Under the pieces are notes generated by a model. It worked only from the letters and a program-made list of their open reading frames with translations, had not been told where the DNA came from and ran no database searches. Positions 2,421 to 53,390 of a stretch of DNA of 64,000 nt are shown piece after piece (positions within the stretch are counted from its first letter, which is position 1; the number at the start of each line of letters is the position of its first letter). Source of the stretch: an uncultured Clostridia bacterium. GTDB lineage: Bacteria; Bacillota; Clostridia; Christensenellales; UBA1242. The position numbers were made by a program, and so were the translations under genes. The stretch lies in the NCBI GenBank assembly GCA_944348085.1, contig CALVMU010000001.1:1703-65702 (forward strand), given 5' to 3'.

Positions 2421-2437
2421 AAATATAAACAAAGAAA

Positions 2438-2463
2438 AGAGCAAATTTTTCATGCTCTTTTTT
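2438..2463. terminator. Bidirectional intrinsic terminator between the lipoprotein gene and sigF
   Basis: AGAGCA-N9-TGCTCT hairpin flanked by an A run upstream and a T run downstream. Confidence 0.55.
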
Positions 2464-2531
2464 GCTTTTTTCAATTTAAAATTTTGCATACTAGCACAAG
2501 ATATTGTTGTTATGCATGCATACTAGCCACA

Positions 2532-3693: not shown

Positions 3694-3703
3694 ATTCTCT
3701 CCT

Positions 3704-4012
3704 TTAAACAATTTTTGGCATAATGTCATAAAGCCCAGTCATTTTGAAAATTTTTTCCGCCTGTTTTGACGGATTGCAAATATAGATAGGAATATGCCTA
3801 TCTTTCATTTTTTTGTATCGCCCAATTAAAACTCCAATACCAGTGCTGTCCATAAATTCAAGCTCTGAAAGGTCAATTATGATTTGATTGAAATCACCAC
3901 CCGCAAACACATTGTCAAGCGTTATACGAGTGTGAGTGGCAGAATGCTCGTCAAGCTCGCCACACAAAAGCACATAAAGCGTGTTGTTGTAAACCTTGCT
4001 TTTTATTTGCAT
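3704..4012 (-). CDS. spoIIAA: Anti-sigma F factor antagonist SpoIIAA (STAS domain)
   Basis: STAS fold pattern with the phosphorylatable Ser context (DLSELEFMDSTGIGVL). The start was moved to MQIKSK, which has a GGAGAA SD. Confidence 0.9.
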   Translation of the reverse strand: MQIKSKVYNNTLYVLLCGELDEHSATHTRITLDNVFAGGDFNQIIIDLSELEFMDSTGIGVLIGRYKKMKDRHIPIYICNPSKQAEKIFKMTGLYDIMPKIV

Positions 4013-4039
4013 TGCTTTTTCTCCTTCTGTAGTAACGAT

Positions 4040-4087
4040 AACATATTCAGCCTTGCGAAAAATATCCACCTTTGTCAAAAATTGACA
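4040..4087 (-). promoter_or_regulatory. spoIIA promoter region: sigma-H-like elements plus a palindrome of two Spo0A-box-like half sites
   Basis: The sense strand reads TGTCAAtttTTGACA (4087-4073), then AAAGGTGGA, then N14, then GCTGAATAT. The palindrome resembles 0A boxes (TGTCGAA) and the rest resembles sigma-H -35 (AGGAwww) and -10 (GAAT) elements. Confidence 0.4.
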
Positions 4088-4118
4088 TAAAAAAAAGAAA
4101 GCACATTTTATGCTTTCT
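4088..4118 (-). terminator. Intrinsic terminator after the DUF5131 gene
   Basis: On the - strand, AGAAAGCA-N7-TGCTTTCT is followed by T8. Confidence 0.65.
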
Positions 4119-4156
4119 TCTAGTTTTGTGCGCTTATGGTTTGCGCTTAAAGCTTT

Positions 4157-4876
4157 TTATAACAAAAACTCTTTTTGAGCTTTCTGAGCCTGAATTTTGC
4201 CCAATCGGTGCGGAATTTGATAGCGCTTTCCATCTTTGACAAAATTGCTTCCAGTGTCGTAAAATTCAAAGTCAACACCATAACGCTTGCACTGCATTGC
4301 CAAATCTTTAACCCAATCAAAATTCAGTTCTCTTGCGTTTTTATAGTTTTCACCGCCTACTGCAACATGGCTGATTTTGCCAGTTTGAAGATATTTTTCA
4401 ATGTTTATTGCCTCAAGCATTGGCGAGACAATAAGCCCACGATAATCAAGGTCAAGACCAAGCAAAATCGGAATGCGCTCATCTGCGCGTTTTTGATTTT
4501 CAACCGTCACATTTAAATAAAAATTTTTGTAATCCTCTTTAAAATTTTCTGGCAAACTCACCCTTTCAATTCTTTTCGTAATAACCTCAAATTTGACATC
4601 TTGCCTTTGCAAAATCATTTGCCAAACCTTATCACGATAAAGGTCAGCCTCTTCCAAGAAAAAATCACTTGTAAGACACACCATCACATGCGAGCCACTT
4701 TCAAGTTTATATGAACCGTCTCTTTTCTTTTTTACCAGCAAATCAAAATCATTGTTTATGCGAAAAATATTGCTATCAATCCCCCTTTGTTTATCAAAAG
4801 AGAACATATAACAATTTTGACACCCTTCACTCTTTTTGTGACAGCCATGCCACGGATTATACATAAACGATTTCAT
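4157..4876 (-). CDS. Phage Gp37/Gp68-family protein (DUF5131)
   Basis: The N-terminal NPWHGCHKKSEGCQNCY three-Cys motif and the later SDFF / ITKR blocks match the family as I remember it. The start is uncertain (4876 or 4864) and there is no good SD. Confidence 0.7.
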   Translation of the reverse strand: MKSFMYNPWHGCHKKSEGCQNCYMFSFDKQRGIDSNIFRINNDFDLLVKKKRDGSYKLESGSHVMVCLTSDFFLEEADLYRDKVWQMILQRQDVKFEVITKRIERVSLPENFKEDYKNFYLNVTVENQKRADERIPILLGLDLDYRGLIVSPMLEAINIEKYLQTGKISHVAVGGENYKNARELNFDWVKDLAMQCKRYGVDFEFYDTGSNFVKDGKRYQIPHRLGKIQAQKAQKEFLL

Positions 4877-6022: not shown

Positions 6023-6098
6023 TGGTGCCCTAAGGTGGAATCGAACCACCGACACAAGGATTTTCAGTCCTTTGCTCTACCGACTGAGCTATCAGGGC
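6023..6098 (-). tRNA. tRNA-Phe (GAA)
   Basis: GCCCTGATAGCTCAGTCGGTAGAGCAAAGGACTGAAAATCCTTGTGTCGGTGGTTCGATTCCACCTTAGGGCACCA. Confidence 0.95.
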
Positions 6099-6113
6099 AA
6101 AATCTTTTTTCTG

Positions 6114-6296
6114 TCGATTCCACCTTAACGAAATCGAACCACCGACACAGCTCCGAAAACTACGCTCTCAGGCTACGGTTTGTCAAAGTCAAACCTCTCC
6201 GCCTTCTCTTGTTTCCTCCGCTCCCCAAAAGAACTTCCGTTCTTTCGTGGCCCCCTCTCTCAGTCCTTTGCTTTTGCCGAACTGAGCTATCAGGGC
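6114..6296 (-). repeat. tRNA-Phe-derived structured unit X1 (tRNA 5' half, ~125-nt insert, T-arm 5' part, fold-back); not a functional tRNA
   Basis: It begins with GCCCTGATAGCTCAG...AAAGGACTG, matching tRNA-Phe. The insert starts inside the anticodon loop. It ends with GTGTCGGTGGTTCGATT followed by TTAAGGTGGAATCGA, the rc of the T-loop/acceptor junction. There is no 3' acceptor strand. Confidence 0.75.
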
Positions 6297-6310
6297 ATCA
6301 ATAACATTTT

Positions 6311-6499
6311 TCGATTCATTTTTATAGTGTCATCAGAATCGAACCACCGACACTTGCTCCGAAAATTGTGCTCTAGGCTTTTTGCTTTCAGCAAATTAAG
6401 CCACTTTCGCTCATTTTCTTCGCTTCCCCAAAAGGCTTAACAGCCTTTCGTGGTCCCCCTTAGCAGTCCTTTGCTTTTGCCGACTTAAGCTATCAGGGC
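6311..6499 (-). repeat. tRNA-Phe-derived structured unit X2 (paralog of X1)
   Basis: Same architecture as X1. The long hairpin 6426-6453 differs from the X1 hairpin 6223-6250 by three compensatory base-pair changes. Confidence 0.75.
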
Positions 6500-11698: not shown

Positions 11699-14600
11699 TT
11701 AAGCCACCCACTCAGTCCAATCAGAGCTTGACGTGATTTGACTTGTGATGTCCTCCGTCCAGAACTGCCCCATCCAAGACAAACCTTTTGGAATTGGACA
11801 GCTGTCAGTATTGAGCCATGCAAAACCTGAGAAATCGGTGCCAAGATAATACTTTACACCACCAGCAATCCACAGACAATTGGTGACTGTGCCAGAATTT
11901 GAACCATAAGGCGACAGCGCCTCATCCACAATTGCATAGCAGTTTTGAATGGTTGTAGAAGAATTAGTGATACGTCCAACAAAGATACCGACATCTGACG
12001 AACCGCTTATCACAGCCCCCTCAACTCCGCAGTTAGTCATGATTGAGCTAGAAGCGCTCCCCACAATTCCGCCAACATTAGAATTTCCACTGACATTTCC
12101 AAAATTTAAACAATTTTGAATGGTACTAGTTTGTATCTGTCCACAAATTCCGCCAACACTATTTCCACCACTAACAATGCCCGTAGTATAGCAATTAATT
12201 ATCGTGACACTGTTATAAGCATACCCAGCAATTCCGCCAACATATTCTGTTCCTTCAACAAAGCCGGTGTTGAAGCAATTGGATATGGTGGAATCGCTAT
12301 AAGCCTGTCCCACAACTCCGCCTACATAACTATGACCACTAACAGAGCTAGTATTAAAGCAATTGGTTATAGTTGCATTATAATTAATATACCCTGCAAT
12401 TCCACTAACATAACTATCACCCTGAATAAATGAATCAATCAATCCGACATTAGCTATCCTATTAGTTAAACTTTGACTGTTTACATACCCAAACAAACCT
12501 TGATAGTAATAACCATTGCCTGAGCCTGCTGGTGTATAGACACCTGAAACTGTGTGACCGCCTCCGTCATAATTACCTGAAAAATATCTCCTTGTAGCAA
12601 CCCCTTCTCGAGTGTAAGCCAAACCAATCGGTTGCCAGTAGTAGTCCGATAAATCTAAATCTTTTGTTTGCCTGAAAGTTACACCTTGGTAAAAATAGAA
12701 AATATTTACATAATTGTTAAAAGGTTTGTTATTATATATTGTCCACGAAAGAAATGCCAAGTCGGTTTCCGACTGGATAAGATATGTGGTTATGCTGGCT
12801 GAGGTGTCCTCTGCTAAAGTATAGTTATCAAAATCAACGCCGAGTGCTTCTTGAGCCGCTTCGTCTGTCCAATAAATGATTTCATGCTTAGTCATACCAA
12901 GACTTTGCAAATATGGATAGCCTCCACCACCAACATAATTGGGTACGCCATCTCCAATTTCCCACACAGTTTTAAAGTCCCATGAATAAGAGCTGTCCCA
13001 ATTGGAAGAGTCAAGATACCACTCTTCATTTTTTGCCCACTCATCAACTGGCGCGTCAATCTTGGTTGCACTGCCACTGCCATAGCCAATACCCTTGTTT
13101 AAAGTGCAATCTCCGCCATAATAAGTGCTTGTTATGGTTGTTGAGCCACTGGAGCTACGATAAGAATACCCCGCAACTCCGCCTTTATAGCTACCACTTC
13201 CACTTACAGAGCCGGTGTTATAGCAATTGGTTATGGTTGCACCATTAGCACGTCCCACAACTCCACCTACCCAATTATCTCCACTAACAGAGCTGGTATT
13301 AAAGCAATTGGTTATGGTTGCATCATCAGCACGTCCCACAACTCCACCTACAGCATCTCCTGTCTCGCTAAACCTTACTAGTGCTTCCACTGAGCCAGTA
13401 TTATAGCAATTGGATACTATGGCTGAATCAGCCTCCCCCACAACTCCGCCTACATCAGAATTTCCATTAACTGAGCCTGTGTTATATACATTTATTACCC
13501 TTGTATTATCATAAGCGTATCCCACAACTCCGCCAACATTAGAAGAACCACTAACTGAACCTGTGTTATATACATTACTTATAGTTAAATAAGAAGTATC
13601 CCCCACAACTCCACCAACATAATCTCCTGTTCCACTGACAGAACCTGTGTTATATGCATTACTTACAGTTGCATAACGAGCCTCCCCCACAACTCCGCCA
13701 ACATATTGATACCCCCGAATAAAAGAGTCAATCACTCCGAGATTTGAAATGTTTGCCTGCTGAGTTGAACTCCTGCCCAAGACATAACCAAACAAACCTT
13801 GATAAGAATAGCCCACTGGTGTATAGACGCCTGAAACTGTGTGACTGTCTCCATCATAATTGCCTGAAAAATATCTCTTTGCAGTTGCCCCATCTCGAGT
13901 ATAAAATATCCCAATCGGCTGCCAGTAATAGGCTGATAAATCTAAGTTTCTTGTTTGCTTAAAGGTTATGCCTGAGTAAAAATAGCGACCATTAAAGACA
14001 TGATTATTATAAGCTTTGTTATTATATATCGTCCACGAAAGAAATGCCAGGTCAGTTTCTGACTGGATAAGGTATGTAGTGGTGCTAGCTGAGGTGTCTT
14101 GTGCTAAACTGTAATTATCAAAATCTACACCAAGTATGTTTTGGGCGCTCTCGTCTATCCAATAATAAGGTCTATTATCCTCTGTGAACAAAACTGGATA
14201 GCCACTATTTTGTTCTGAATCAATATACCATGTCAAATCAAAATCCCATGAATAAGCGCCATCCCAATTGTCAGAGTCAAAATACCATTCTTCATTTTTT
14301 GCCCACTCCTCAACTGGTGCGTCAATCTTAATTGCTCTGCCACTGCCAGAGCCAATACCTTTGTTTAAAGTGCAATCTCCACCATAATATGTGTTGGTTA
14401 TATCTGCTCCACTAGCTGCTTGTCCAACAACTCCACCAACAGACTCTCCTGTCCCTTCAACAGAGCCAGTGTTGTAGCAATTGGTTATGGGCGCACGATA
14501 ACCATAACCAGTGCTACTACAGCCACTATATCCTGCAATTCCACCAATAGAGGTCATTCCACTTACAGAGCCAGTGTTGTAGCAATTTGTTATGGGCGCA

Positions 14601-15787
14601 TTCTTAATGTTGGACGTACCACCACAGCCACCATACCCTGCAATTCCGCCAATAGAGGTCATTCCACTTACAGAGCCAGTGTTGTAGCAATTTGTTATAG
14701 TACCATTATAAGCTCTCCCAGCGACTCCGCCAACCTCTTTATTTCCACTAACAGAGCCAGTGTTATAGCAATTGGTTATGGTTGCCGGAATCATTCCACC
14801 AACTCCGCCAACACCATCTTCTCCACTAACAGTGCCTGTGTTATATGCATTGCTTATAGTTGTATTAGAATGTGCACTCCCCACAACTCCGCCAACACCA
14901 TCTTCTCCACTAACAGTGCCTGTGTTATAGCAGTTGGTTATAGTTGTACTACTAGCAGTCCCTACAACTCCGCCAACATAAGAATAATACTCACCACTGG
15001 CACTAACAGAGCCAGTGTTATAGCAATTGGTTATGGTTGCGCTTTGAGCATACCCCACAACTCCGCCAACATAAGAAGAACCACTAACCGAACCTGTGTT
15101 GTATACATTGCTTATAGTTGCATTAGAATATGCATACCCCACAACTCCACCAACATCGTTATCACCTTGCACAAAAGAATCAATTACTCCAAAATTTGCA
15201 ATGCTCGCCTGCAGTGTCAAGCTTCTGCCCGCGACATAACCAAACAAACCTTGATAAGAATAACCATTGCTTGAGCCTGCTGGGGTAAACACTCCTGAAA
15301 CTGTGTGTCCTCCGCCATTATAGTTGCCTGAAAAATAGCGACTTGCACTTGTTCCGTCTCGTGTATAACCTATACCTATAGGTTGCCAATAGTATGCCGA
15401 AAGATCAAGATTTTTTGTTTGTTTGAAATATATATCTGAGTAATAATAATTGCCAGATACATGGTTATTGTAAGCATTGCCAGTATATATCGTCCAAGAA
15501 AGAAAAGCAAGGTCGGTTTTTGATTGGATAAGGTATGGATCTTCTCCAGAGCCTGAGCCTGAGAGTGTGTAGCTTGTAAAGTCAACGCCTTGCTCGGTTT
15601 GGGCTTCTGTGTCAGTCCAGTAATAATTTTTGTTGGTTGGCTGGTCAGCCGCGACTGCTATGTTTGAAAGGTCGGAGTCTCCACTGTCCGCAAAATTTAA
15701 GCCAACATTGACTGCGGTGCAAACAAAAAGGAGTGTTAAAAGAAGATAGATAAAATTGTTAAATTTGCTTTTTAACTCAAATTTCAT
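11699..15787 (-). CDS. Giant secreted GLUG-type repeat surface protein (1362 aa) made of three ~430-aa super-repeats
   Basis: The start was moved to MKFELK (AAAGGAG SD) and the N-terminus has a TM/signal segment. Each super-repeat has YLIQS.TDLAFLSWTI...YYWQPIG...FSGNY.G.GHTVSGV...GLFGYV followed by many ITNCYNTGSVSG..VGGVVG units. Confidence 0.85.
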   Translation of the reverse strand: MKFELKSKFNNFIYLLLTLLFVCTAVNVGLNFADSGDSDLSNIAVAADQPTNKNYYWTDTEAQTEQGVDFTSYTLSGSGSGEDPYLIQSKTDLAFLSWTIYTGNAYNNHVSGNYYYSDIYFKQTKNLDLSAYYWQPIGIGYTRDGTSASRYFSGNYNGGGHTVSGVFTPAGSSNGYSYQGLFGYVAGRSLTLQASIANFGVIDSFVQGDNDVGGVVGYAYSNATISNVYNTGSVSGSSYVGGVVGYAQSATITNCYNTGSVSASGEYYSYVGGVVGTASSTTITNCYNTGTVSGEDGVGGVVGSAHSNTTISNAYNTGTVSGEDGVGGVGGMIPATITNCYNTGSVSGNKEVGGVAGRAYNGTITNCYNTGSVSGMTSIGGIAGYGGCGGTSNIKNAPITNCYNTGSVSGMTSIGGIAGYSGCSSTGYGYRAPITNCYNTGSVEGTGESVGGVVGQAASGADITNTYYGGDCTLNKGIGSGSGRAIKIDAPVEEWAKNEEWYFDSDNWDGAYSWDFDLTWYIDSEQNSGYPVLFTEDNRPYYWIDESAQNILGVDFDNYSLAQDTSASTTTYLIQSETDLAFLSWTIYNNKAYNNHVFNGRYFYSGITFKQTRNLDLSAYYWQPIGIFYTRDGATAKRYFSGNYDGDSHTVSGVYTPVGYSYQGLFGYVLGRSSTQQANISNLGVIDSFIRGYQYVGGVVGEARYATVSNAYNTGSVSGTGDYVGGVVGDTSYLTISNVYNTGSVSGSSNVGGVVGYAYDNTRVINVYNTGSVNGNSDVGGVVGEADSAIVSNCYNTGSVEALVRFSETGDAVGGVVGRADDATITNCFNTSSVSGDNWVGGVVGRANGATITNCYNTGSVSGSGSYKGGVAGYSYRSSSGSTTITSTYYGGDCTLNKGIGYGSGSATKIDAPVDEWAKNEEWYLDSSNWDSSYSWDFKTVWEIGDGVPNYVGGGGYPYLQSLGMTKHEIIYWTDEAAQEALGVDFDNYTLAEDTSASITTYLIQSETDLAFLSWTIYNNKPFNNYVNIFYFYQGVTFRQTKDLDLSDYYWQPIGLAYTREGVATRRYFSGNYDGGGHTVSGVYTPAGSGNGYYYQGLFGYVNSQSLTNRIANVGLIDSFIQGDSYVSGIAGYINYNATITNCFNTSSVSGHSYVGGVVGQAYSDSTISNCFNTGFVEGTEYVGGIAGYAYNSVTIINCYTTGIVSGGNSVGGICGQIQTSTIQNCLNFGNVSGNSNVGGIVGSASSSIMTNCGVEGAVISGSSDVGIFVGRITNSSTTIQNCYAIVDEALSPYGSNSGTVTNCLWIAGGVKYYLGTDFSGFAWLNTDSCPIPKGLSWMGQFWTEDITSQITSSSDWTEWVA

Positions 15788-15808
15788 TGGTTGCTCCTTT
15801 TGACGAGG

Positions 15809-15898
15809 CGGAAACTGCCAACGCGCTAACCTTGCGCGTGGGTTTTGCCGAGAGGCAAAACGGAAAAAATTGCGGTGGCAATTTTTTGGCAGTTTCCG
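15809..15898 (-). promoter_or_regulatory. Structured 5' leader (four-way junction) of the giant surface protein gene; candidate cis-regulatory RNA
   Basis: On the sense strand, an 11-bp closing stem CGGAAACTGCC/GGCAGTTTCCG encloses three hairpins: AAAAAATTGC-cacc-GCAATTTTTT, GTTTTGCC-tctc-GGCAAAAC and CGCGC-aaggtta-GCGCG. It ends 14 nt before the SD. Confidence 0.5.
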
Positions 15899-15915
15899 AC
15901 CAGATTTCAATATAT

Positions 15916-34239: not shown

Positions 34240-34518
34240 ATGTTTGTTGGACTTGCAGTGGCTGGCTCATTCTGCGCGCAAAACATGCTCAGCGCAAGTG
34301 AAGTTGGAGATTTTCCAATCTTGTCACTTATCTGAGCAATTGCCTTCTATGGACTTGCAGCTTTCGGCTTTGTTATGCAACTTATCGGTTTAAATTTTGC
34401 GATTGTTCAGAAAAGGCTTAACAAACAGACGATTGGAAAAGTTGCTTCAATCATGTCTTATGTTCTTATTCCACTTTCAATAATCGCAGTTGTTGTCACA
34501 ATTGTTTTAGTTTTATAA
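34240..34518 (+). pseudogene. Small two-TM membrane protein ORF interrupted by an in-frame TGA at 34333-34335
   Basis: It reads MFVGLAVAGSFCAQNMLSASEVGDFPILSLI-TGA-AIAFYGLAAFGFVMQLIGLNFAIVQKRL...VVVTIVLVL. A hydrophobic helix runs straight across the stop. Confidence 0.45.
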
Positions 34519-34601: not shown

Positions 34602-34630
34602 TTGACTTGTGGTCTAAAAACAAGTATAAT
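34602..34630 (+). promoter_or_regulatory. Consensus sigma-A promoter of tRNA-Glu
   Basis: TTGACT (34602-34607), a 17-nt spacer, then TATAAT (34625-34630). Confidence 0.75.
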
Positions 34631-34648: not shown

Positions 34649-34723
34649 GGCCTCATGGTCAAGCGGTTAAGACACCGCCCTTTCACGGCGGAATCAGGGG
34701 TTCGATTCCCCTTGAGGCTACCA
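34649..34723 (+). tRNA. tRNA-Glu (TTC)
   Basis: GGCCTCATGGTCAAGCGGTTAAGACACCGCCCTTTCACGGCGGAATCAGGGGTTCGATTCCCCTTGAGGCTACCA. Confidence 0.95.
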
Positions 34724-34734
34724 AAAAAAATTGC

Positions 34735-34758
34735 GCGAAGAAATCTCTTCGCTTTTTT
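34735..34758 (+). terminator. Intrinsic terminator after tRNA-Glu (duplicated at 35051-35074)
   Basis: GCGAAGA-aatc-TCTTCGC followed by T6. Confidence 0.7.
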
Positions 34759-34929
34759 GTTACTTTATTTATTAAAAGGAATCGAACCCCGTCTTGTTAG
34801 GGCTCCCGAAAATCGAAAGATTTTTGGGAAGAGGAGCAAACGAGCGCAAGAGCAAGAGTTTTGATAAAAACTTTGCATAAGCGAAGTTTGTGACGAGATT
34901 CCCCTTGAGGCTACCAAAAAAAATTGCGC
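34759..34929 (+). repeat. tRNA-Glu 3' module: anti-T-arm box, conserved hairpin, and a second copy of the tRNA 3' end
   Basis: GGAATCGAACCCC (34777-34789) is the rc of the Glu T arm. The hairpin is CCCGAAAATC-GAAA-GATTTTTGGG (34804-34827). The 33-bp block gattccccttgaggctaccaaaaaaaattgcgc at 34897-34929 is identical to 34704-34736. Confidence 0.8.
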
Positions 34930-35074
34930 TTTTGCCTAGCTACTTCGTAGCGTATGGCACTGGCGCTTATTTTTTTTTGTTGTTTCGCGCCAAACGAAAA
35001 TCGCACAGCGAATTTTGCGCGAACTTGCATAAAGTTTGATAAAAAATTGAGCGAAGAAATCTCTTCGCTTTTTT
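34930..35074 (+). repeat. Second repeat block: more hairpins plus a third copy of the tRNA-Glu downstream flank and terminator
   Basis: It contains GCTAC-ttc-GTAGC and CGAAAATCGC-aca-GCGAATTTTGCG (same hairpin family). The sequence aaaaaattgAgcgaagaaatctcttcgcttttttgtt at 35041-35077 matches 34725-34761 with one mismatch. Confidence 0.7.
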
Positions 35075-35150
35075 GTTTGTTTCTAAAATAAATCTCCAAC
35101 AAAAAACCACCCTTTTTGGAGTTTTCCCCATCAAGAGTGGTTTTAGCTTT

Positions 35151-35675
35151 TTATCTCTTTGCGTTTTTAAGTTTGCTTCCACATACAATGCCAAGTGCTG
35201 AACCAATAAGACCAAACACAAGAAATAGCCATGCTCCAACTGCAGGGATATAAGAATGAGACACTCCAAGACCTTCTGTATGCATTTGGAGACAGCCAGC
35301 AAGCAAAAGAACAAATGCGATAAGAACTGCTATAAATGCAACAATAGATAAAACTCTTACTGTGATTTGAAGCCAATTCTTTTTAATAAAGAATTGAAGC
35401 ACAATTGCGATGATCAAAAGGCTTAGCATAATGATGCTGATAATGAAGAAGGCTTCGCTACCCTTCCAAGTGCCTTCAGCTTCAATCAAGCCACTAAAGT
35501 CGCTATTGAGACTTTCAAACCAATCGCCGAAAGAGACAGAGGCGCTCTCTCCAGACAAGCTTCCTCCACTCGTTTGAGTGAAATAAGCACCTCCAGCCAT
35601 GCTAATCATGGCGCCTAGCGACAATAAGATTGCCAGAACTCGCAAAACTATTGTTTTTACCGATTTTACTTTCAT
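35151..35675 (-). CDS. Hypothetical 4-TM membrane protein
   Basis: 174-aa ORF with an N-terminal signal/TM segment plus three hydrophobic helices. Confidence 0.55.
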   Translation of the reverse strand: MKVKSVKTIVLRVLAILLSLGAMISMAGGAYFTQTSGGSLSGESASVSFGDWFESLNSDFSGLIEAEGTWKGSEAFFIISIIMLSLLIIAIVLQFFIKKNWLQITVRVLSIVAFIAVLIAFVLLLAGCLQMHTEGLGVSHSYIPAVGAWLFLVFGLIGSALGIVCGSKLKNAKR

Positions 35676-42684: not shown

Positions 42685-44106
42685 TTAATGTTTTTTATTC
42701 AATTTTTTTATAAGCCTTTCCTTATCTTTCTGCACCTCTGTCTTTTTTGTCGTGAAAGCCTTGTCCTGATTTAAACTGACAAGATAATATCTCATTTCGT
42801 CAAGGCAGTGGTCATCTTTTTTTATAGGAAGGTCGTCGTCACCCCACCAATATGATTTGATTTCACGAATAAGATTGACGCAATTTTTGAAAATATACAG
42901 ATGCGTTTTTCCATTTGCATCACAAAGATAACGCTTTACAATGTTGATGCCAGTAAACATATCTTTATTCACTCGCGGATTTGTCAAAATGCCATTTTCA
43001 TAGAAAAGTTCCACCACGTTTTTGGTGCTGGCAAGCGTTTTTTGAGTTGCCGCACTGTCAATAAGCGCCTCCAAAAAGCCATTTCGGTTGGTTTTCCAGC
43101 CAAGACGCGAGGCAATCTCTTTGATCTTTTGAGCATGCCAGTCAACCTCTTTGCCTTTTTCATAATGCTCAGCAATCACATAGACATTGCCGTCATAGTC
43201 GCGCGCATAAAAGTGAGCAGAAAGCGGATTGTTGAGTCCTGGGTCGATTGAGATGTTGTCTTGCCAATCTTTTGGAATTTCAAATGGCTCTATCACATGT
43301 TTGTTTTCATCAAAACTGTTATACACAAGTCCGCCACATTGCATAAATTTTCCATAACGCCTGCTTTCCAGCTCTTCCGCCGAAATGGAAGCGCTCATCT
43401 CTTCAATTTCCTTTTGAGAAAGATATGGGTTGTCCGCCCATTCCATTTGAATGGTCCAAACATTTTCGTCATTATGCTCGTTGAGATAGATTTCGTTATA
43501 CACCCAAGTAAGCCCTTTAAGCGGAGTCATTGTTCCAAAAATTTCGCCACTCCGATCAAGAACTCTCATTTTGCATTCCAAATATATGTCATAAGGCGGT
43601 TCTTCATCAAACCAAACAAAATCGAGCGAAGTGCCTTGAAATTTTTCTCTGCCCTGATCGCAACTTTTGAAGCCAATTTTGCTCAGCGAGCCAAAAACAT
43701 TGCGCACCAAAATAAAATCAATCACGCCACTTTCGGCGCTGTCTTGCCTGCCTTTTGCCATCACAATTTTTTCAATCCACTGCTTTTTTAAGTAGTGAAG
43801 CACTTTGGCCTGCGCGACATCGCGTTGAACTTGTTTTGACAAACTGACAACCCAGCAAGAAATTGGCTTGTTTTTTCGATATGGATGAATGCCACGCGCA
43901 AGATAAACTGTTTCCACAGCACCACACTCAGTTTTTCCAGAGCGATTTCCACCAAAAACCCAGCGGTTTTTCTTCTGGCATTTGTGAAATTCAAGTTGTT
44001 TTTTATGGATTTTTTCACCGCTGTTATATTGCGATAAAAAATCATCTTTTTTTCTTTCTTTGATTTCTTCTTTAACTAGTTTAAGTTTATATTTCAATTC
44101 ATTCAT
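42685..44106 (-). CDS. Phage terminase large subunit (apparently intact, orphan)
   Basis: Walker A GGNRSGKTECG, Walker B LDFVWFDEEP, coupling motif GTMTP, and nuclease Asp motifs ISIDPG / DDHCLDEMRYY. The start was moved to MNELKY (AGGTGA SD). Confidence 0.8.
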   Translation of the reverse strand: MNELKYKLKLVKEEIKERKKDDFLSQYNSGEKIHKKQLEFHKCQKKNRWVFGGNRSGKTECGAVETVYLARGIHPYRKNKPISCWVVSLSKQVQRDVAQAKVLHYLKKQWIEKIVMAKGRQDSAESGVIDFILVRNVFGSLSKIGFKSCDQGREKFQGTSLDFVWFDEEPPYDIYLECKMRVLDRSGEIFGTMTPLKGLTWVYNEIYLNEHNDENVWTIQMEWADNPYLSQKEIEEMSASISAEELESRRYGKFMQCGGLVYNSFDENKHVIEPFEIPKDWQDNISIDPGLNNPLSAHFYARDYDGNVYVIAEHYEKGKEVDWHAQKIKEIASRLGWKTNRNGFLEALIDSAATQKTLASTKNVVELFYENGILTNPRVNKDMFTGINIVKRYLCDANGKTHLYIFKNCVNLIREIKSYWWGDDDLPIKKDDHCLDEMRYYLVSLNQDKAFTTKKTEVQKDKERLIKKLNKKH

Positions 44107-44194
44107 TTTTTCACCTGTCAAAATAAGATATTTAGCTTGTTTTTTCGACAAAAAATGGTTAACAATAAAAAATTTTAAAATTTAAAATAAAATC

Positions 44195-44995
44195 ATGATT
44201 AAAAAAATGTGTTTTATAGTTTTAGGTTTATCTCTATTTTGTGCATTTTTTGGCTTCTTCCAGCCTGCAAATGCAAGCGAAAGCATAAGCTATTATGCAA
44301 AAGTTGAAGAAAGCGGAGTCTATTTCTATTCAAATCCAATAGATGACGAAACCAGCAAGCTTTTTATTTTGCCTCAGACATATTTTGTCTATCTGACCGA
44401 CGAGGAAAATGAAAACTTTTATGTCGCACAATATAAAGATGTCTATGGCTATGTGCGAAAACAAGATGTGGTCGTCATGAACGGAACTCCGTCTGTGCCT
44501 TTCGCCAGCCGAAATTTTACAATCAAAGATTTAGATGGACTTTCTCTTTACCCTTCCCCTAGTTTTTCAAACAACACAAGCCTTGCAAAAATTGATTATC
44601 TGACCATCGTCTCGTCATATTATGGCGACATGCCTGGTGAAAATATTCCTGACCTAAACAGCCCATGGTTTTATTGCAAAGTTGTTCAAGATGATGCAAC
44701 TTTGTTTGGCTATGTTTATTCTGACTCATGCTATCGAATCAGCACCATTTCGCCAAATACCGAAAGCTTTGAAATTGTCTCTTCGCCAAGTTTTGATGTT
44801 TCGCAAGGTCAAGAGGCCTCGCTGAGCGAAGTTGCAATGGCATTTATTGTGATTGGCGTTTCTTTGCCTTGCATTCTTATAATCTATCTGCTTATAAAAC
44901 CAAGCCTGCAAAAATCAAAACCTTCACCTTCCAAAAAGAAAGTGCGCAAACGCCACGGTGACTATTTTGAATTTGATGAAAACGACTTAAACTAA
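44195..44995 (+). CDS. Secreted protein with two SH3b-like domains and a C-terminal TM anchor
   Basis: Signal peptide, then YAKV..SGVYFYSNP..YV.KQDV patterns repeated twice. Hydrophobic helix AMAFIVIGVSLPCILIIYLLI. Confidence 0.55.
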   Translation: MIKKMCFIVLGLSLFCAFFGFFQPANASESISYYAKVEESGVYFYSNPIDDETSKLFILPQTYFVYLTDEENENFYVAQYKDVYGYVRKQDVVVMNGTPSVPFASRNFTIKDLDGLSLYPSPSFSNNTSLAKIDYLTIVSSYYGDMPGENIPDLNSPWFYCKVVQDDATLFGYVYSDSCYRISTISPNTESFEIVSSPSFDVSQGQEASLSEVAMAFIVIGVSLPCILIIYLLIKPSLQKSKPSPSKKKVRKRHGDYFEFDENDLN

Positions 44996-44996
44996 G

Positions 44997-45524
44997 CTAG
45001 CCAGCAACAAGTTTTCCCAGTCTGTTTTCGTCAATTTGCACGCTGTCGTCACTCTTTGCAGAAATAAGGCGATTGTAAACTTCCATAATCCACTTTTCCG
45101 ACGAAATATAATCAAACAACCTTTTTTCAGAAAAACCCAGTTTGCTCATTTCAACCGAAAAATGCTCAAGCGCTTCATTCAATCTGCGAAAATATGTTCG
45201 TTCTGAAAGATTATGCCTTTTTGCAATGTCAAAACTCTTTTCATTGTCCATATAGCGTTCAATCAAAATTTGTGCCGACAAAATAGGACATGCCTCAAGT
45301 GCCATATCAATCAAAATCTTAAGGTTTATAAGTTTAACCTTGCGCTCCGACAAATTTATAATGTAATCTGCAACTGATGTTATGCTGTTTTCACTTCCTC
45401 CAGAAAGTCCAACATAAAAAGAATTCAAAGCTCGCCTTTCAATCAACCTATCAATTGCATCGGTAATTCTTTCCAAATACCTATCGACCATCAAAACTGT
45501 TTTTGCACATAAATTAAACTTCAT
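44997..45524 (-). CDS. Sigma-70 region-4-like HTH protein (ArpU/RinA-like phage late-gene activator type)
   Basis: ILIERYMDNEKSFDIAKRHNLSERTYFRRLNEALEHF reads as a region-4 HTH. The start was moved to MKFNL (AGGGGGA SD). Confidence 0.5.
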   Translation of the reverse strand: MKFNLCAKTVLMVDRYLERITDAIDRLIERRALNSFYVGLSGGSENSITSVADYIINLSERKVKLINLKILIDMALEACPILSAQILIERYMDNEKSFDIAKRHNLSERTYFRRLNEALEHFSVEMSKLGFSEKRLFDYISSEKWIMEVYNRLISAKSDDSVQIDENRLGKLVAG

Positions 45525-45602
45525 ATTTCCCCCTTTAATACGAAAAAAATTATAAAATTTAAAACAACAATAGTCAATGTTAACTGCCATAAATTTTTAT
45601 AG

Positions 45603-45626: not shown

Positions 45627-45881
45627 CTACAAAAATGCCGTCAATTTGGCGTCAAAATTATGTCAAAAAGGTAAAAAATTCGACATTTTTCGCACAATTT
45701 TAAAATTTTCAAAATTTCACATCAATTTTTTCAATAAAATTATCGAAATTTTGTTTAAATTGAATATAAAAACTTGTCAAAACAAAAAATTTGTGATAGA
45801 ATAAAAGAGCAATCTCAAAGTTTGCATACAAAATCAGCAAACAAACCGAGTGCAAAAAAACAAGTGCTAAACGCACTTAGC

Positions 45882-46013
45882 ACTGCCCTACAAATAAATA
45901 TGCTGGTGTGGCGGCTCGGGGTCCCCAAAAGCTTATAAAGATTTTGGGGTGATCAGTGGCAGACGCACAGACTTAAAGTCCTGTGCGTAAACTAAATAAA
46001 AAGTTTAGTTATT
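45882..46013 (+). repeat. tRNA-Leu(UAA) 5'-half unit with a D-loop hairpin insert (132-bp unit, tandem to the real gene)
   Basis: The head actgccctacaaataaatatGCTGGTGTGGCGG is identical to 46014-46046. The insert hairpin is at 45923-45949. It is followed by ACGCACAG-ACTTAAAGTC-CTGTGCGT, which still displays TAA. There is no T arm and no 3' acceptor strand. Confidence 0.8.
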
Positions 46014-46033
46014 ACTGCCCTACAAATAAATAT

Positions 46034-46119: not shown

Positions 46120-46256
46120 AAGAAAAATCTGCGTGTGAAATGCAGTTTTTTATTCAAATCAAGTGCGCATAAAAGTGGGAGGTGACCCCTTGGGTGAGAC
46201 GGGTTCCCTGAAAATCGTCAGATTTTTAGGGTAAGGCTTCCACCACCAGCACCAAG
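46120..46256 (+). repeat. tRNA-Leu 3' module L1: weak terminator hairpin, degenerate anti-T-arm box, conserved hairpin, second tRNA 3' end
   Basis: GTGGGAGGTGACCCC (46175-46189). Hairpin CCCTGAAAATC-GTCA-GATTTTTAGGG (46206-46231). ccaccaccagcaccaa at 46240-46255 is identical to 46105-46120. L1 is about 90% identical to 50367-50508. Confidence 0.8.
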
Positions 46257-46496
46257 TATACTATACAAAAAGTCTTTTTTTGAAAAGGACTTGACACACT
46301 GCATACAGTGGCTTTGATTGATTTTTGCACTGTATACAGAGTTGGAAGTGACAACATGGCGAAAGATTGGAAGAAAAACAGAAAAAAGTGTCTTATTTAG
46401 GAAAATGAATTTTGATTTTTTTACTTAAAAATTAAATTAAATCAAAAATAATCAAAAATCAAAATAGGTGGTATAATTTTCGTTGAGGTTAAGAAA

Positions 46497-49990: not shown

Positions 49991-50124
49991 CTACTGCCCT
50001 ACAATTTAATATGCTGGTGTGGCGGCTCGGGGTCCCCAAAAACTTATAAAGATTTTGGGGTGATCAGTGGCAGACCGACGGCTCAAGAGTCCGTCGCGAA
50101 AACGAAATTGACTTACTTAGTTTT
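49991..50124 (+). repeat. tRNA-Leu(CAA) 5'-half unit, copy 1 (134 bp)
   Basis: Head ctactgccctacaatttaatatGCTGGTGTGGCGG, D-loop insert hairpin at 50034-50060, anticodon-like hairpin CGACGG-CTCAAGAGT-CCGTCG, and tail hairpin GAAAAC..GTTTTC. Confidence 0.8.
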
Positions 50125-50258
50125 CTACTGCCCTACAATTTTATATGCTGGTGTGGCGGTTCGGGGTCCCCAAAAGCTTATAAAGGTTTTGGGGTGATCA
50201 GTGGCAGACCGACGGCTCAAGAGTCCGTCGCGAAAACGAAATTGACTTACTTAGTTTT
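50125..50258 (+). repeat. tRNA-Leu(CAA) 5'-half unit, copy 2 (134 bp)
   Basis: Near-identical to copy 1, with a handful of substitutions. Its hairpin is at 50168-50194. Confidence 0.8.
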
Positions 50259-50280
50259 CTACTGCCCTACAATTTTATAT

Positions 50281-50366: not shown

Positions 50367-50508
50367 AGAAAAAATCTGCGTGTAAAATGCAGTTTTTTTA
50401 TTTAAATCAAATGCACATAAAATGTGGGAGTCGAACCCTTGGGTGAGACGGGTTCCCTGAAAATCGCCAGATTTTTAGGGTAAGGCTTCCACCACCAGCA
50501 CCAAGAAA
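50367..50508 (+). repeat. tRNA-Leu 3' module L2: exact anti-T-arm box, conserved hairpins, second tRNA 3' end
   Basis: GTGGGAGTCGAACCC (50424-50438) is the rc of the T arm GGGTTCGACTCCCAC. The hairpin is at 50455-50480. The 20-bp block ccaccaccagcaccaagaaa at 50489-50508 is identical to 50352-50371. Confidence 0.85.
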
Positions 50509-50718: not shown

Positions 50719-52383
50719 TTATTTTATCTTTCGGCTTTCACTGCAAGAAAAATATGCCACTTGGTATGATTTTGCAAGTTCTTCTAAAATCGGCACAGCC
50801 ATTGCAAAATTTTGATCATCTAGATTGACAAAACTGTCATCTAGAATAACGCAAGGCTTTTCTTTTTTATAAACTTTGTCAAGAAGGCTAAAACGCTGGC
50901 AAATCACCACCAAATCGCGATAACCTTGGCTTAAATATTCCACATTTTTTGCGCCTTGACTTGTGATAATCCAAGGATTGAGTGAGCTGTCAATCGAAAT
51001 CTTTTCAGAACCATTAAAGCCATCGAAAAAGCTTTGAAATTTTTCGTTCAAAGGAGTAACAAACCTTTCACTAACATTTTCTCTTGCCAATTTTAAAAAG
51101 TTCATTGTCTTTTTCAGAAGCTCGATTTTTTCAAGCCCGCCCTTTCGCTCGGCTGCAAGCGCGCTCTCATTTGTCAGCAAAATGGAAAGCTCTTCCTGCT
51201 TGCTTTCAATTTCACTGGTCAGGTTTGCCACTTTTGCGCTGGCATGTGCATAGCCTTGTTCAATTTCCAATTTTTTCTGATAAAGCGCTTCACTGTCAAT
51301 TTCTTCAGCTTCAGGTAGCGCCTCAATCTCAACCTTCAATTTGTCGATTTCACCTCTTAAAGCCATAATCTCTTCGTTTGCAAAAGTGTCTCTAGGTTTG
51401 TTTTTAAAAATTAAAAGCGCTCCGCCCAAAAGCAAAAATATTGCACCAACTGTAAGACCAATTTCTATCGCCAAAACATCAAAGGCAAAAAGCAAAACAA
51501 AAATTGCACCGACTGAAAACAACAAAATTGAAAGAGGCAAGAATTTTGGTTTTGTCTTTTCAATTGGTTTTTGATTTGCAAGCTCATTTAAGCGCAAATT
51601 TTTGCTGTTAAACTGCTCTTGCAACGCTCTTTTTTCATCAGCAAGTTTTCTTTGCTCTTTTGCCTTTTCTCTTTCTTCTTCAAAAATCTTGTCAAATTCA
51701 TGTTTTTCAAAAGTCTGTTTTTGCAAATCGGCAGTCTCATTTTTCAAAAGTTGTTCAGCCTCTGAAATATCCTTTTTTAGTCTCTCGATATTTCTTTCAA
51801 TTTGCTTAAGCTCGACCTCTTTTGGAAGAAGAGATACCAGCTCTTTACGATTTTTCTCTAGCAATTTGATTGCAAATTCTGTTTTTTCGCCATCATTTTT
51901 GTATTTTTCAATGCCTGCAAGGTTGGAAACAACCTCGTCTGTTGAAGAAGATGACAAATCATTTTGACCAAAAAATGCAGAAATGGCAAAAGTTTCTTTG
52001 CCAACGCCAAAAAGCTCTTCGCCAATATTTTCAGAATAATCACCGCTTATTTTATTAGCATTTAAGTCAAAAAGCTGAAAACTGTCTTCCTCTGGCGTTT
52101 TGCCAAAAGTTCTGAAAATTTGATAGTTTTTTCCTCTGGCTTCAATTGTCATGTTTCCGCCAAATTTGCCACCCTGCCAAGGTTCATATTTTGAGCGCTC
52201 TGACTGATAATCTTTTTTTCTTCCCTTTGCCTCAAGTCCATAAAACATTGCTTTGATAAATGCGCAAAGTGTGCTTTTTCCCCAGCCATTTTCGTGGATA
52301 AACTGATTGAGCTCGCTGGAAAAAGAAAGGTCAAAGTTTGACAGTTTGCCAAAATTTTCGATATGAAGTTTTACAATTTTCAT
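50719..52383 (-). CDS. SbcC/Rad50-like (YhaN-type) AAA ATPase with two predicted TM helices in the middle of the coiled coil
   Basis: N-terminal ENGWGKST P-loop. C-terminal LSQGYRDL signature-like motif and the Walker B motif CVILDDSFVNLD. Residues 281-326 (FLPLSILLFSVGAIFVLLFAFDVLAIEIGLTVGAIFLLLGGALLIF) are hydrophobic. Confidence 0.7.
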   Translation of the reverse strand: MKIVKLHIENFGKLSNFDLSFSSELNQFIHENGWGKSTLCAFIKAMFYGLEAKGRKKDYQSERSKYEPWQGGKFGGNMTIEARGKNYQIFRTFGKTPEEDSFQLFDLNANKISGDYSENIGEELFGVGKETFAISAFFGQNDLSSSSTDEVVSNLAGIEKYKNDGEKTEFAIKLLEKNRKELVSLLPKEVELKQIERNIERLKKDISEAEQLLKNETADLQKQTFEKHEFDKIFEEEREKAKEQRKLADEKRALQEQFNSKNLRLNELANQKPIEKTKPKFLPLSILLFSVGAIFVLLFAFDVLAIEIGLTVGAIFLLLGGALLIFKNKPRDTFANEEIMALRGEIDKLKVEIEALPEAEEIDSEALYQKKLEIEQGYAHASAKVANLTSEIESKQEELSILLTNESALAAERKGGLEKIELLKKTMNFLKLARENVSERFVTPLNEKFQSFFDGFNGSEKISIDSSLNPWIITSQGAKNVEYLSQGYRDLVVICQRFSLLDKVYKKEKPCVILDDSFVNLDDQNFAMAVPILEELAKSYQVAYFSCSESRKIK

Positions 52384-53390
52384 AATGACAAATCATCTCC
52401 TTTTAGCGCTTCAATTCCAATAGTCAAAATTTTGTTTTTTTCTTCCTCACCAAGCTCTGCCTCTTCAACCAACCTTATAAACTCCGCCTTAAAAGAAAGA
52501 GGCTCGTTTTTATATCTCTCAATGTCAATTTCAACCTTTGTTTTGTCAACAAATTCAACATAAAAAGCATTTGCTCCTCTGATGATAGAAGCAAAATCTG
52601 GCTTTTCGCCTTCGGCATAATAGCCTGTGAAAACAAGCCTTAGAAGATTGTTTTTGTTTTCTTCGATAACTTTTTTAAGCTCATTTGAAAGATTTTCCTG
52701 CCCTGGCGTTAAAGCAAATTCAACAATTTTAAATTGGCGCTGAGGCAGTGGCTTAAACTCCGCCTTAACCTCATCTTTCACATCAACCAGCACAAAACCT
52801 TTCTCACCACACTCATCAAAGCCGTTTGCAAAAAGAGCACCACTATAGCAAATCAGGCTTTTCTGAAAAGTGCCCTTCCAAAAACTATGCTCATGCCCAA
52901 GTGCAATATAGTCAAAAGGTTTGGTAACATATTTTTTTAAATCAACAAAGTCATAATCGCTTTTATTTGAAATTTCGCCGTGCAAAAGAAGAACATTTTT
53001 CTTGCTGTAATCAAAATTTTGATATTCTTCACAAGCAGACCAGAAGTCAACATTTTCAGTGCGAAAAACATTGTTTTTCTCGTCCAAAACTATAAAATTG
53101 CTTGGAGCAAATTCAAACTCCATTTTCTCGTCATGATTTCCATTGATATACAAAACTGGTCTGCCAAATTTTTCAACCTCTTTGAAAAATGCTTTTTTGA
53201 TTTTTTGCGTGACAAAATTTGTGTGAAAAAGGTCGCCACACACAAGCATAACATCAGAGTCTTCTTGAAAAAGCGTGGAAAGGCTGTCGATATGCTCTTG
53301 CAGAAGTTGTTTTTGTTTGATAAGAGGCAACTTGACATTTTTTGCGCCAAGATGCAAATCAGCAGTATGTAAAATTTTTTCAACTCTCAT
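52380..53390 (-). CDS. SbcD/Mre11-like (YhaO-type) metallophosphoesterase nuclease subunit
   Basis: HTADLHLG, VCGDLFH, INGNHD, LLLHGE and ALGHEH motifs. It overlaps the ATPase gene by 4 nt. Confidence 0.8.
   Translation of the reverse strand: MRVEKILHTADLHLGAKNVKLPLIKQKQLLQEHIDSLSTLFQEDSDVMLVCGDLFHTNFVTQKIKKAFFKEVEKFGRPVLYINGNHDEKMEFEFAPSNFIVLDEKNNVFRTENVDFWSACEEYQNFDYSKKNVLLLHGEISNKSDYDFVDLKKYVTKPFDYIALGHEHSFWKGTFQKSLICYSGALFANGFDECGEKGFVLVDVKDEVKAEFKPLPQRQFKIVEFALTPGQENLSNELKKVIEENKNNLLRLVFTGYYAEGEKPDFASIIRGANAFYVEFVDKTKVEIDIERYKNEPLSFKAEFIRLVEEAELGEEEKNKILTIGIEALKGDDLSL

Follow-up and report, generated by a model that had tools for sequence, protein, structure and literature searches.

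Compact non-coding modules with tRNA-matched antisense boxes at the ends of tRNA genes in uncultured Clostridia

Mobile DNA classically inserts at tRNA genes, and where a tRNA end is found duplicated, the usual reading is that an integrase has left its footprint. The locus described here raises the question of what such duplicated ends mean when there is no gene between them. It lies within a 64,000-nucleotide stretch of DNA from an uncultured Clostridia bacterium (hereafter the window), in which the region downstream of a tRNA-Glu gene (34704-35092) repeats parts of the tRNA 3' end and of the trailer behind it. We find that the integrase-like signature here arises from tiny, structured modules without genes, which follow a strict architectural rule: an antisense box spanning the breakpoint (hereafter the anti-box), then a hairpin, then a tRNA end. 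Each module corresponds to its own tRNA; the modules are conserved in many uncultured Clostridia of gut and rumen, and they differ from strain to strain.

The repeated unit at the tRNA-Glu locus, which we call S, is made up of the tRNA 3' end (P), the sequence A7-TTGCGC (Q), a terminator (R) and a spacer of about 15 nt. The gene and the parts of its module are given below; loci used for comparison carry numbers with the prefix L.

34602-34630, forward strand: near-consensus promoter of tRNA-Glu, TTGACT-17-TATAAT (11/12 consensus matches)
34649-34723, forward strand: tRNA-Glu(UUC) with encoded CCA (67 bits); its T arm AGGGGTTCGATTCCCCT is the template for the anti-box
34704-34776, forward strand: proximal copy of S: P (from the T loop on), Q, R (bidirectional terminator GCGAAGAaatcTCTTCGC-T6) and the spacer of about 15 nt
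34778-34790, forward strand: anti-box GGAATCGAACCCC, a 13/13 inverted repeat, antisense of tRNA positions 49-61
34791-34803, forward strand: linker GTCTTGTTAGGGC, degenerate when compared with L031, L090 and L064
34804-34828, forward strand: hairpin element (the hairpin itself at 34805-34828), stem CCCGAAAATC / GATTTTTGGG, GAAA loop, one G.U-type pair
34829-34896, forward strand: 68-nt tail, AAGAGGAGCAAACGAGCG-[variable hairpin]-GCGAAGTTTGTGACGA, which together with the hairpin forms a repeat family of about 100 nt
34897-34929, forward strand: distal copy of the tRNA 3' end P (CCA ends at 34916) with Q, 33/33
34926-34978, forward strand: GCGC motif, a hairpin GCGC-TTTTGCC-TAG-stem-CGTAT-GGC-ACT-GGCGC followed by T9, terminator-like in both directions; part one of layer 2
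34984-35023, forward strand: CGCGCC motif, TTCGCGC-CAAAC-stem-GCGCGAA; part two of layer 2
35041-35092, forward strand: rest of the distal S copy (Q'-R' and spacer), 87% identity over 52 nt

The main elements of the initial annotation of this locus are all present, and none of them is attributable to chance. The direct repeat of P-Q is perfect over 33/33 positions (34704-34736 = 34897-34929). The second repeat, Q-R, had been reported to recur with one mismatch at 35041-35077; this holds for its first 37 nt, and the repeat actually extends over 52 nt (34725-34776 / 35041-35092) with 87% identity. The anti-T-arm box is the exact reverse complement of GGGGTTCGATTCC (34697-34709, the tRNA-Glu T arm), and it, like the GAAA-capped hairpin, proved correct except for a shift of one base in position. 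The inserted stretch had been described as carrying no gene, and there is indeed no open reading frame (ORF) within 34724-35150. Two details had to be revised. A supposed second, imperfect member of the hairpin family, CGAAAATCGC-aca-GCGAATTTTGCG (34996-35020), is the inner stem of the CGCGCC motif and belongs to a different family, and the two pairs of repeats are two separate layers instead of one att pair nested within another. Layer 1 is a second set of tRNA 3' end and terminator, joined to the first through the anti-box, the hairpin and the 68-nt tail. Layer 2, a block 111 nt long, consists of two further recurrent hairpin motifs and lies between Q (which ends at 34929) and Q'-R' (35041-35092). 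A second, overlapping repeat (Q/Q') exists because the layer-2 block interrupts the distal S. Judged from the sequence, the nesting reads as a duplication of S, after which the layer-2 block entered the distal S, with Q and Q' on either side of it.

Both layer-2 motifs are found elsewhere. In other genomes (L079, L101, L129 and L066) they come after the outer tRNA copy, as seen for the GCGC motif in all four, and the CGCGCC motif recurs in L066, L062, L101 and in a module of other strains at the tRNA-Leu loci (module X, see below); its inner stem covaries among loci (TGAATTC/GAATTCA vs GAAAAT/ATTTT). As a separate observation, a non-coding unit of about 540 nt, consisting of the GCGC motif, the CGCGCC motif, three hairpins and the tail, stands in tandem downstream of tRNA-Glu at L066 (330-1420) and is also present in L043, L125 and L056; it has no Rfam or phage match.

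Terminators are predicted on both strands behind the gene (stem 34735-34752) and at the distal end of the region (35049-35070), where the terminator also serves a convergent gene on the reverse strand (35151-35675). Because the tRNA-Glu gene is complete and has its own promoter and terminator, the modules are probably not needed for making tRNA-Glu. The module region is identical in two independent metagenome assemblies (L001, L011), and it is therefore no assembly artefact. Assemblies of many other samples (L002-L010, L012-L014) break inside 34677-35092 or at the tRNA; repeat modules of this kind systematically fragment short-read metagenome assemblies at tRNA loci.

The same architecture was found in about 25 modules from about 20 species represented by metagenome-assembled genomes (MAGs), at tRNA-Leu, tRNA-Met, tRNA-Glu, tRNA-Arg and tRNA-Thr genes. 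The hairpin pattern matched more than 116 loci in contigs representing one genome per species, mostly from uncultured Clostridia, with additional matches in Paludibacteraceae and other Bacteroidales; in viral contigs there were 0 matches. Hairpins lie no more than 500 nt downstream of a tRNA on the same strand in 39 cases, upstream of a same-strand tRNA in 6 and near an opposite-strand tRNA in 3. With respect to protein genes, they show no orientation bias (30 in the same and 21 in the opposite orientation), and because of this they are not simply elements of 3' untranslated regions, a possibility that we rejected.

The anti-boxes, 9-19 nt in length, are exact antisense copies of the adjacent tRNA. 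Matching of the anti-T-arm to the neighboring tRNA had been proposed for the Glu module, and it generalises to tRNA-Met, five tRNA-Leu isoacceptors, tRNA-Glu, tRNA-Arg and tRNA-Thr; examples are the anti-boxes of Met (TGGGATCGAACCAGT), Leu-CAG (GGGAGTTGAACCCAC), Leu-UAG (AGGAGTTGAACCTGC) and Glu (GGAATCGAACCCCT). In canonical modules, the hairpin is followed by a direct copy of the tRNA 3' end that terminates exactly at CCA, and the 5' end of this copy is spanned by the anti-box in 26/39 cases. In the window, the Glu anti-box (49-61) spans the start, at position 56, of the distal tRNA copy (56-75), and the spanning rule also holds where the breakpoints are different (Arg, anti-box 39-53 and copy 47-77; Thr, anti-box 40-48 and copy 44-76). 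Of 70 tRNAs in the fetched loci, a sample that is hairpin-selected and therefore biased, 27 have an exact downstream copy of their 3' end, and 24 of these 27 have an anti-box as well. Leu, Glu and Met modules carry a short direct piece, GGGTTCG, directly 3' of the anti-box, so that the order of parts is inverted T arm, tiny loop, T-arm 5' piece, hairpin, T-arm 3' piece, acceptor strand and CCA; in the relatives L031, L090 and L064, GGGTTCG and a GGGT hairpin prefix occupy the position of the degenerate linker of the window. Arg and Thr modules have no direct 'a' piece. The duplicated unit can include the host trailer (47 identical nt in L090, at least 120 nt in L025, likewise in L134 and L136), and tandem modules with a decayed outer copy are found in L019. 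We considered an inverted pseudo-tRNA as the source of the anti-box and rejected it, as the flanks of the anti-boxes are not antisense tRNA. Taken together, the architecture represents a conserved family that is matched to the neighboring tRNA. The family is apparently widespread, strain-variable and undescribed.

The hairpin provides information about the strand on which the modules fold. Among members outside the selection by the search pattern, oriented by their GGG(N)CCC prefix, a single stem position that departs from Watson-Crick pairing is G.T in 26 cases and A.C in 0. Because G.T is found to the exclusion of A.C, the folding constraint acts on one strand, the tRNA-sense strand; this pattern of substitutions is compatible with RNA and with single-stranded DNA alike. 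Loops are GNRA/GNNA in Clostridia and UGYU/CUUG in Bacteroidales. Hairpin and tail together form a structured repeat of about 100 nt that is present in many loci, and 15 of its 24 predicted pairs show compensatory changes. The predicted one-strand fold is a three-way junction closed by pairing of the anti-box with the copy, with a free acceptor-NCCA tail of 12-14 nt; z-scores of the predicted junctions range from -2.8 to -5.1 (Leu and Met modules, and the Glu module of the window).

Other stem variants with the same base as this hairpin exist, and there are several hairpins per MAG. In strain L146, a 39-nt hairpin (TCGGGGTTCCCCGAAAATTTGAAAAATTTTTGGGGTGAT) is cleanly inserted in an otherwise near-identical 5' module, with no target-site duplication at the insertion. 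The hairpin is thus an independently inserting unit of about 39 nt. Within the 64-kb window, all hairpins of the family sit in pseudo-tRNA pieces, on the tRNA sense strand. A near-identical hairpin, GGGGTCCCCGAAAATC-UGYU-GATTTTTGGGG, was observed in MAGs of Paludibacteraceae and other Bacteroidales (L016, L024, L030, L032-L034, L038, L045, L058-L060, L065, L095 and others), where an AGAGGAG... tail and a long stem often come after it; the hairpin repeat thus spans two phyla.

Further modules of the window are located at its tRNA-Leu and tRNA-Phe genes.

46120-46259, forward strand: module A after tRNA-Leu(UAA), 93% identical to the tRNA-Leu(CAA) copy
50367-50508, forward strand: module A after tRNA-Leu(CAA)
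49995-50280, forward strand: two tandem 5' pseudo-half modules of tRNA-Leu(CAA)
45878-46033, forward strand: one 5' pseudo-half module before tRNA-Leu(UAA)
6113-6499, reverse strand: two pseudo-tRNA-Phe copies upstream of tRNA-Phe (6023-6098)

The initial annotation had noted that the order of parts in the Glu module is that of the two modules A, and we found the same. At both tRNA-Leu loci, module A has a CACCAAG boundary on each side and the flanks beyond are unrelated; the proximal trailers are module-borne and the distal ones locus-specific. The 5' modules consist of a 22-nt leader and the 5' half of the tRNA; their D loop contains the hairpin GGGGTCCCCAAAAGCTTATAAAGATTTTGGGGTG, and they also have an extended anticodon-like hairpin. 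Each pseudo-tRNA-Phe carries an element of about 105 nt (the hairpin and a AGCGGAGG.. tail) in its anticodon loop, and the 5' part of its T arm is followed by an inverted T-arm piece (GGTGGTTCGATT tcgttaa GGTGGAATCGA). Two genomic neighbors of the tRNA-Leu genes may be mentioned here. A gene similar to the large terminase subunit (Terminase_6N; 42685-44151, reverse strand) lies 2 kb upstream of tRNA-Leu(UAA), and the genes between the two (44195-45590) are kept beside tRNA-Leu in other species. An SbcC/SbcD-like gene pair (AAA_23/SMC_N and Metallophos; 50719-53390, reverse strand) is located directly downstream of the module array of tRNA-Leu(CAA); SbcC/SbcD is a nuclease of hairpins and palindromes.

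Comparison of orthologous sites shows that modules vary in number and kind between strains and are always bounded by copies of tRNA ends. The RecD2-ComF-tRNA-Glu site of L031 and L090, where ComF is about 50% and RecD2 72-73% identical, carries a canonical module; in L090 the duplicated unit comprises the 3' end and a 28-nt terminator trailer, identical in both copies, and in L031 the trailers have diverged. In L079 the whole arrangement of the window is present at 79.5% identity, beside tRNA-Glu(CUC). The region of L002 shows about 20 differences from the window within 34829-35010, several of which preserve the pairing of the inner tail hairpin (as read by eye), and the next 140 nt and the neighboring gene are identical. 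No module-free allele was recovered at the Glu site; other assemblies break inside the region. Upstream of tRNA-Leu(CAA), strains with 100% identical DegV have 0, 1 or 2 5' modules. The 3' alleles of the two tRNA-Leu loci consist of module A, the 238-nt module X, X+A, or A and a decayed A; module X is present at both loci and brings about 200 nt of non-local sequence.

Allelic variation of another kind was observed in the terminator loop of tRNA-Leu(CAA), where gene cassettes are inserted between ctgcgtgtaaa and atgcag (alleles of 50367-50420 of the window; L142 4500-6300, L143 5299-6188, L144 3234-3700). One cassette carries a PHP-domain gene (about 1.4 kb), and another an ORF of 79 amino acids (about 390 nt); the cassettes end in inverted repeats (CTTTGAAACTAGC ... 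GCTAGTTTCAAAG) and carry no recombinase.

In order to identify an enzyme associated with the modules, we examined their genomic neighborhoods. No recombinase was found near about 30 modules, with the exception of L025, and none among the window ORFs scanned, namely the eight nearest to the Glu and Leu modules and about 30 other longer ORFs, a set that excludes an ORF of 1403 amino acids (11699-15910) and four ORFs beyond 57.7 kb. Clustering of the 535 ORFs within 1.5 kb of hairpins at 116 loci yielded no shared protein family; the largest cluster is a repetitive surface protein. At L047, 150 nt away from a hairpin of the family, there is a RAYT-like gene for a Y1 transposase (1936-2460; Pfam Y1_Tnp, 23.1 bits), whose relatives are named RayT by the Joint Genome Institute (JGI). 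No such hairpin is found near three homologues of this gene (67-82% identity), and RAYT is not favored as the mobiliser of the hairpin. Scans of the window and 34 related loci against Rfam 15 (including T-box, tmRNA and ROOL/GOLLD), run at gathering and E-value thresholds, returned only tRNAs above threshold, apart from an L10 ribosomal-protein leader in L102 that is located away from the hairpins and is unrelated to them. In blastn searches of the 540-nt unit of L066 against phages and of the Glu region against plasmids, only the tRNA itself matched. No promoter was predicted downstream of the tRNA-Glu terminator, and a search of the literature on the hairpin sequence and on palindromic repeats flanking tRNAs returned nothing relevant.

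The exceptional locus, L025, bears directly on the origin of the modules. The 4 kb (700-4760) that separate tRNA-Leu(CAG) from the module here encode a large serine recombinase, of which eight close relatives (L131-L138) were found at 92-98% identity. Four of their contigs reach far enough to show the neighboring gene, a tRNA-Leu(CAG) of different sequence; the island is integrated at the CCA end of tRNA-Leu(CAG) in several species. Its ends, CACCA followed by AGTGAGAGCAATCCGAACCG on the left and CGGTTCGGATACTTTATCACTTGTCGCACCA on the right, are unrelated to the module. The outer arms of the reconstructed island attP (CGGTTCGGATACTTTATCACTtgtcgCACCAAGTGAgagcaATCCGAACCG) resemble the tRNA T arm and its complement. 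The host trailer begins just outside the right end of the island, and the same trailer recurs after the tRNA copy of the module. Since the trailer is found in both places, the island entered at the CCA of the true tRNA when the module was already present. The module itself is host sequence and not an end of the island. We therefore rejected the serine recombinase as the maker of the modules, as island ends and duplicated host trailers indicate a later insertion into an existing one. The initial annotation held that a large element at the Glu site of relatives, with ends matching 34737-34896, would reduce the module to a decayed att scar; the island of L025 and L131-L138, which occupies an analogous tRNA-Leu site, has ends unrelated to the module and stands beside a pre-existing one.

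The integrase-footprint interpretation is, on this evidence, partly right. The repeats of the tRNA 3' end are real and of the insertion or duplication type, but a recombinase accompanies only one of about 30 modules, and the duplicated unit also takes in the host-specific trailer and terminator, unlike a classic integrase footprint. More generally, the modules share features with att accretion, REP hairpins and attC sites, yet fail a defining feature of each. Integrative elements that target tRNA genes display att duplications, tandem accretion and gene-poor cis-mobilizable elements (CIMEs) (PMC5704250). The modules similarly place inserted DNA between direct repeats of the tRNA 3' end, leave the tRNA gene intact, and form serial arrays of strain-variable content with older copies outward. 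However, they are only 100-300 bp long, contain no gene or linked integrase, often include the host trailer and terminator in the repeat, and possess a conserved anti-box and hairpin that classical attL and attR sites do not have. The islands with large serine recombinases also insert at the CCA end of tRNA-Leu, with an attP that has an inverted repeat including the T-arm-like GGTTCG and its complement CGAACC; in contrast to the modules, their ends are unrelated and their insertion into the module-bearing locus is later.

Small hairpin repeats such as REP/BIME, REPIN and the Rickettsia palindromic elements are, in some cases, mobilised by RAYT (Y1) transposases. Like them, the hairpin of the modules is a unit of about 35-40 nt with many genomic copies and strand-specific mismatches, shows insertion polymorphism between strains, and is tolerated within structured RNA-like sequence; the family consists of short imperfect palindromes in many intergenic copies, as REP sequences do. 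Unlike them, it has no GTAG-type tetranucleotide, is confined in the window to pseudo-tRNA pieces, occurs in the same form in two phyla, and is not consistently associated with RAYT (the one adjacency in L047 against three homologues without hairpins). Nor do the modules resemble MITEs, since the L146 insertion has no target duplication and the modules are bounded by a tRNA copy and an anti-box in place of terminal inverted repeats. In integrons, recombination of a folded attC site with replicative resolution is an established mechanism (PMC3458562, PMC5027507). The modules would resemble attC and the attP(+) of CTX phage in that one strand is predicted to fold into an imperfect hairpin mimicking a double-stranded target, in their cassette-like arrays beside a fixed site, and in the order of parts after integration. 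In contrast to integrons, no integron integrase or Xer-type enzyme is tied to the modules, there are no ORF cassettes, and it is a tRNA gene that is targeted. A further comparison is offered by the regulatory 3' external transcribed spacers of tRNAs, of the 3'ETS-leuZ type, and by the bacterial tRNA-like Y RNAs (YrlA): as modelled, the modules would also be structured, derived from or mimicking tRNA, and encoded beside tRNA genes, but they lie behind a terminator and their copy number is variable.

The account that we favor, with about even confidence, is that these are accreting non-coding DNA modules at tRNA ends, spread by recombination at repeated tRNA ends. Such modules would be selfish or neutral non-coding DNA, gained, duplicated and lost by this recombination, which could be either site-specific, with an enzyme provided in trans, or homologous/unequal, and they would have moved among tRNA genes with a common 3' end. 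The newest module would adjoin the tRNA and the older ones would be displaced outward and decay, while the independently inserting hairpin unit would colonise the loops of pseudo-tRNA arms. Several points weigh against this account. No responsible enzyme was found among the ORFs neighboring the modules and the window ORFs scanned, at 15-33 nt the direct repeats are on the short side for exchange by RecA, and neutral DNA between direct repeats should vanish fast. Instead, deeply diverged relatives still have a module at the orthologous Glu site, and the breakpoints of the Met and Arg modules are the same in several species; long persistence and fixed breakpoints argue for selection or active re-insertion. 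Additionally, neither simple integration nor a simple tandem duplication accounts for where the anti-box comes from; its rule fits a fold-back or template switch, or a folded single-strand recombination site mimicking the double-stranded tRNA target in the manner of integron attC sites. The persistence of the architecture also leaves room for a function, which may be that of a structured 3' trailer or a half-tRNA mimic, for example. Finally, the loci were gathered through the hairpin pattern, which biases the sample toward hairpin-bearing modules.

Among the alternatives, we consider it possible but unlikely that the modules are functional RNA. Read-through from the tRNA promoter (or, for 5' modules, a position in the 5' leader) would then yield structured mimics of tRNA halves, in which a T-stem-like helix of the 5' part of the anti-box and the copy is modelled to close the hairpin-bearing junction and to leave the acceptor-strand-NCCA tail free; possible roles of such an RNA are those of a decoy or sponge, of a partner to the 5' modules that resembles an RNase P external guide, and of a handle to which a hairpin-binding protein could attach. 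This is consistent with a three-way-junction architecture kept across tRNA types and species, with the GNRA or CUUG tetraloops and the strand-specific G.U pair, with compensatory changes between strains and species, with hairpins inserted only in the loops of pseudo-tRNA arms (D, anticodon, T) and, in the window, always on the tRNA sense strand, and with modules kept at the orthologous Glu site at about 50% identity of ComF. However, the modules stand behind a strong terminator with no predicted promoter, number 0-2 among near-identical strains while outer copies decay, and match no Rfam family, and their G.T pairs and GNRA loops fit folded single-stranded DNA equally well. Such folded DNA is the basis of a proposal that we regard as distinctly unlikely, namely that the modules are single-strand att cassettes whose anti-box and split T-arm copy mimic, by analogy with attC, the double-stranded T arm of the tRNA gene. 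A recombinase acting in trans would exchange one strand with the tRNA gene, and replication would resolve the product. The order predicted in this way begins with the tRNA, followed by a 3' end and terminator brought in by the element, the cargo, the anti-box, a loop, the 5' piece of the T arm and finally the old 3' end, and it is that of the Leu, Glu and Met modules, including GGGTTCG after the anti-box; the proximal trailers at the Leu loci are module-borne and the distal ones locus-specific, the arrays vary between strains as cassettes would, the folding constraint acts on one strand only, and the chemistry has the precedent of attC cited above. Against this, no integrase is found among the scanned window ORFs or beside the modules, several loci have two identical host trailers and so resemble a local duplication, the hairpin occupies the exact spot where a seamless junction is expected, and the direct 'a' piece is missing from the Arg and Thr modules.

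The resemblance to local duplication could also be taken at face value, with the modules arising from local replication errors by fold-back or template switch ('tandem inversion duplication') at the tRNA hairpins of a highly transcribed gene. A direct copy, a short inverted piece and a direct copy would result, and hairpins would settle later in the single-stranded loop. The anti-box does straddle the breakpoint as a fold-back would leave it (b' at the stem base, a' in the loop), trailers are duplicated along with the tRNA end, and the loops from anti-box to direct piece are only 0-5 nt long. We nevertheless hold this origin to be improbable: Met and Arg breakpoints recur in several species, module X brings its non-local sequence, module A is common to two loci with unrelated flanks, and the anti-box holds tRNA bases that are missing from the adjacent copy, so that an intact tRNA gene must have been its template. 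Integrated islands typically show duplicated tRNA 3' ends, and a large element (a phage or an island) between copies of the tRNA end could have been deleted down to about 160-300 bp, leaving a decayed att scar. The 4-kb serine-recombinase island between tRNA-Leu and the module in L025 is real, as are the gene cassettes between tRNA-Leu(CAA) and module A in L142-L144. Yet that island has its own, different ends and entered a pre-existing module, and the cassettes sit in the terminator loop with inverted repeats of their own. Independent deletions would not be expected to arrive at one compact architecture, with the same breakpoints, in about 25 modules, and neither a coding remnant nor phage or plasmid similarity is present, so that such a scar seems very improbable.

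A more speculative view, which we put forward tentatively and think unlikely, is that the modules are not debris and constitute a programmable, structure-based system of tRNA-directed recognition, either as integron-like cassettes or as hairpin-tagged half-tRNA RNAs. In the former version, the folded-strand site may mimic the T arm of a chosen tRNA gene, with the anti-box as the 'bottom strand' of the target, as an analogy with integrons suggests. In the latter, there may be 5' halves with a hairpin in the D loop and 3' halves with a hairpin in the T loop and a free acceptor-NCCA tail; these halves may assemble, or may pair with the real tRNA via the anti-box and acceptor strand, under a hairpin-binding protein. 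Either version, if true, would represent a new kind of tRNA-directed nucleic-acid recognition in gut Clostridia, and a dedicated recombinase or an RNA function would mean that a tRNA gene or tRNA is recognised in a new way, via a folded nucleic-acid mimic. If it is still inserting in natural populations, the 39-nt hairpin would be among the smallest active insertion units known. Whichever account holds, the modules can mislead tools for the prediction of genomic islands.

The window is chromosomal, has about 38% GC, uses the standard genetic code, and encodes sporulation and housekeeping proteins including SigF, SpoIIAB, ValS, CysS, AlaS and RecD2. The sources of proteins identical to those of the window are limited to metagenome assemblies and to MAGs from animal guts that carry the label uncultured Clostridia. 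An alternative code (4 or 25), suggested by a TGA in frame at 34333, was rejected because the count of in-frame TGA is zero in all long genes. The small hydrophobic ORF that contains this TGA (34241-34518) may be a pseudogene, the product of a sequencing error or two small ORFs.

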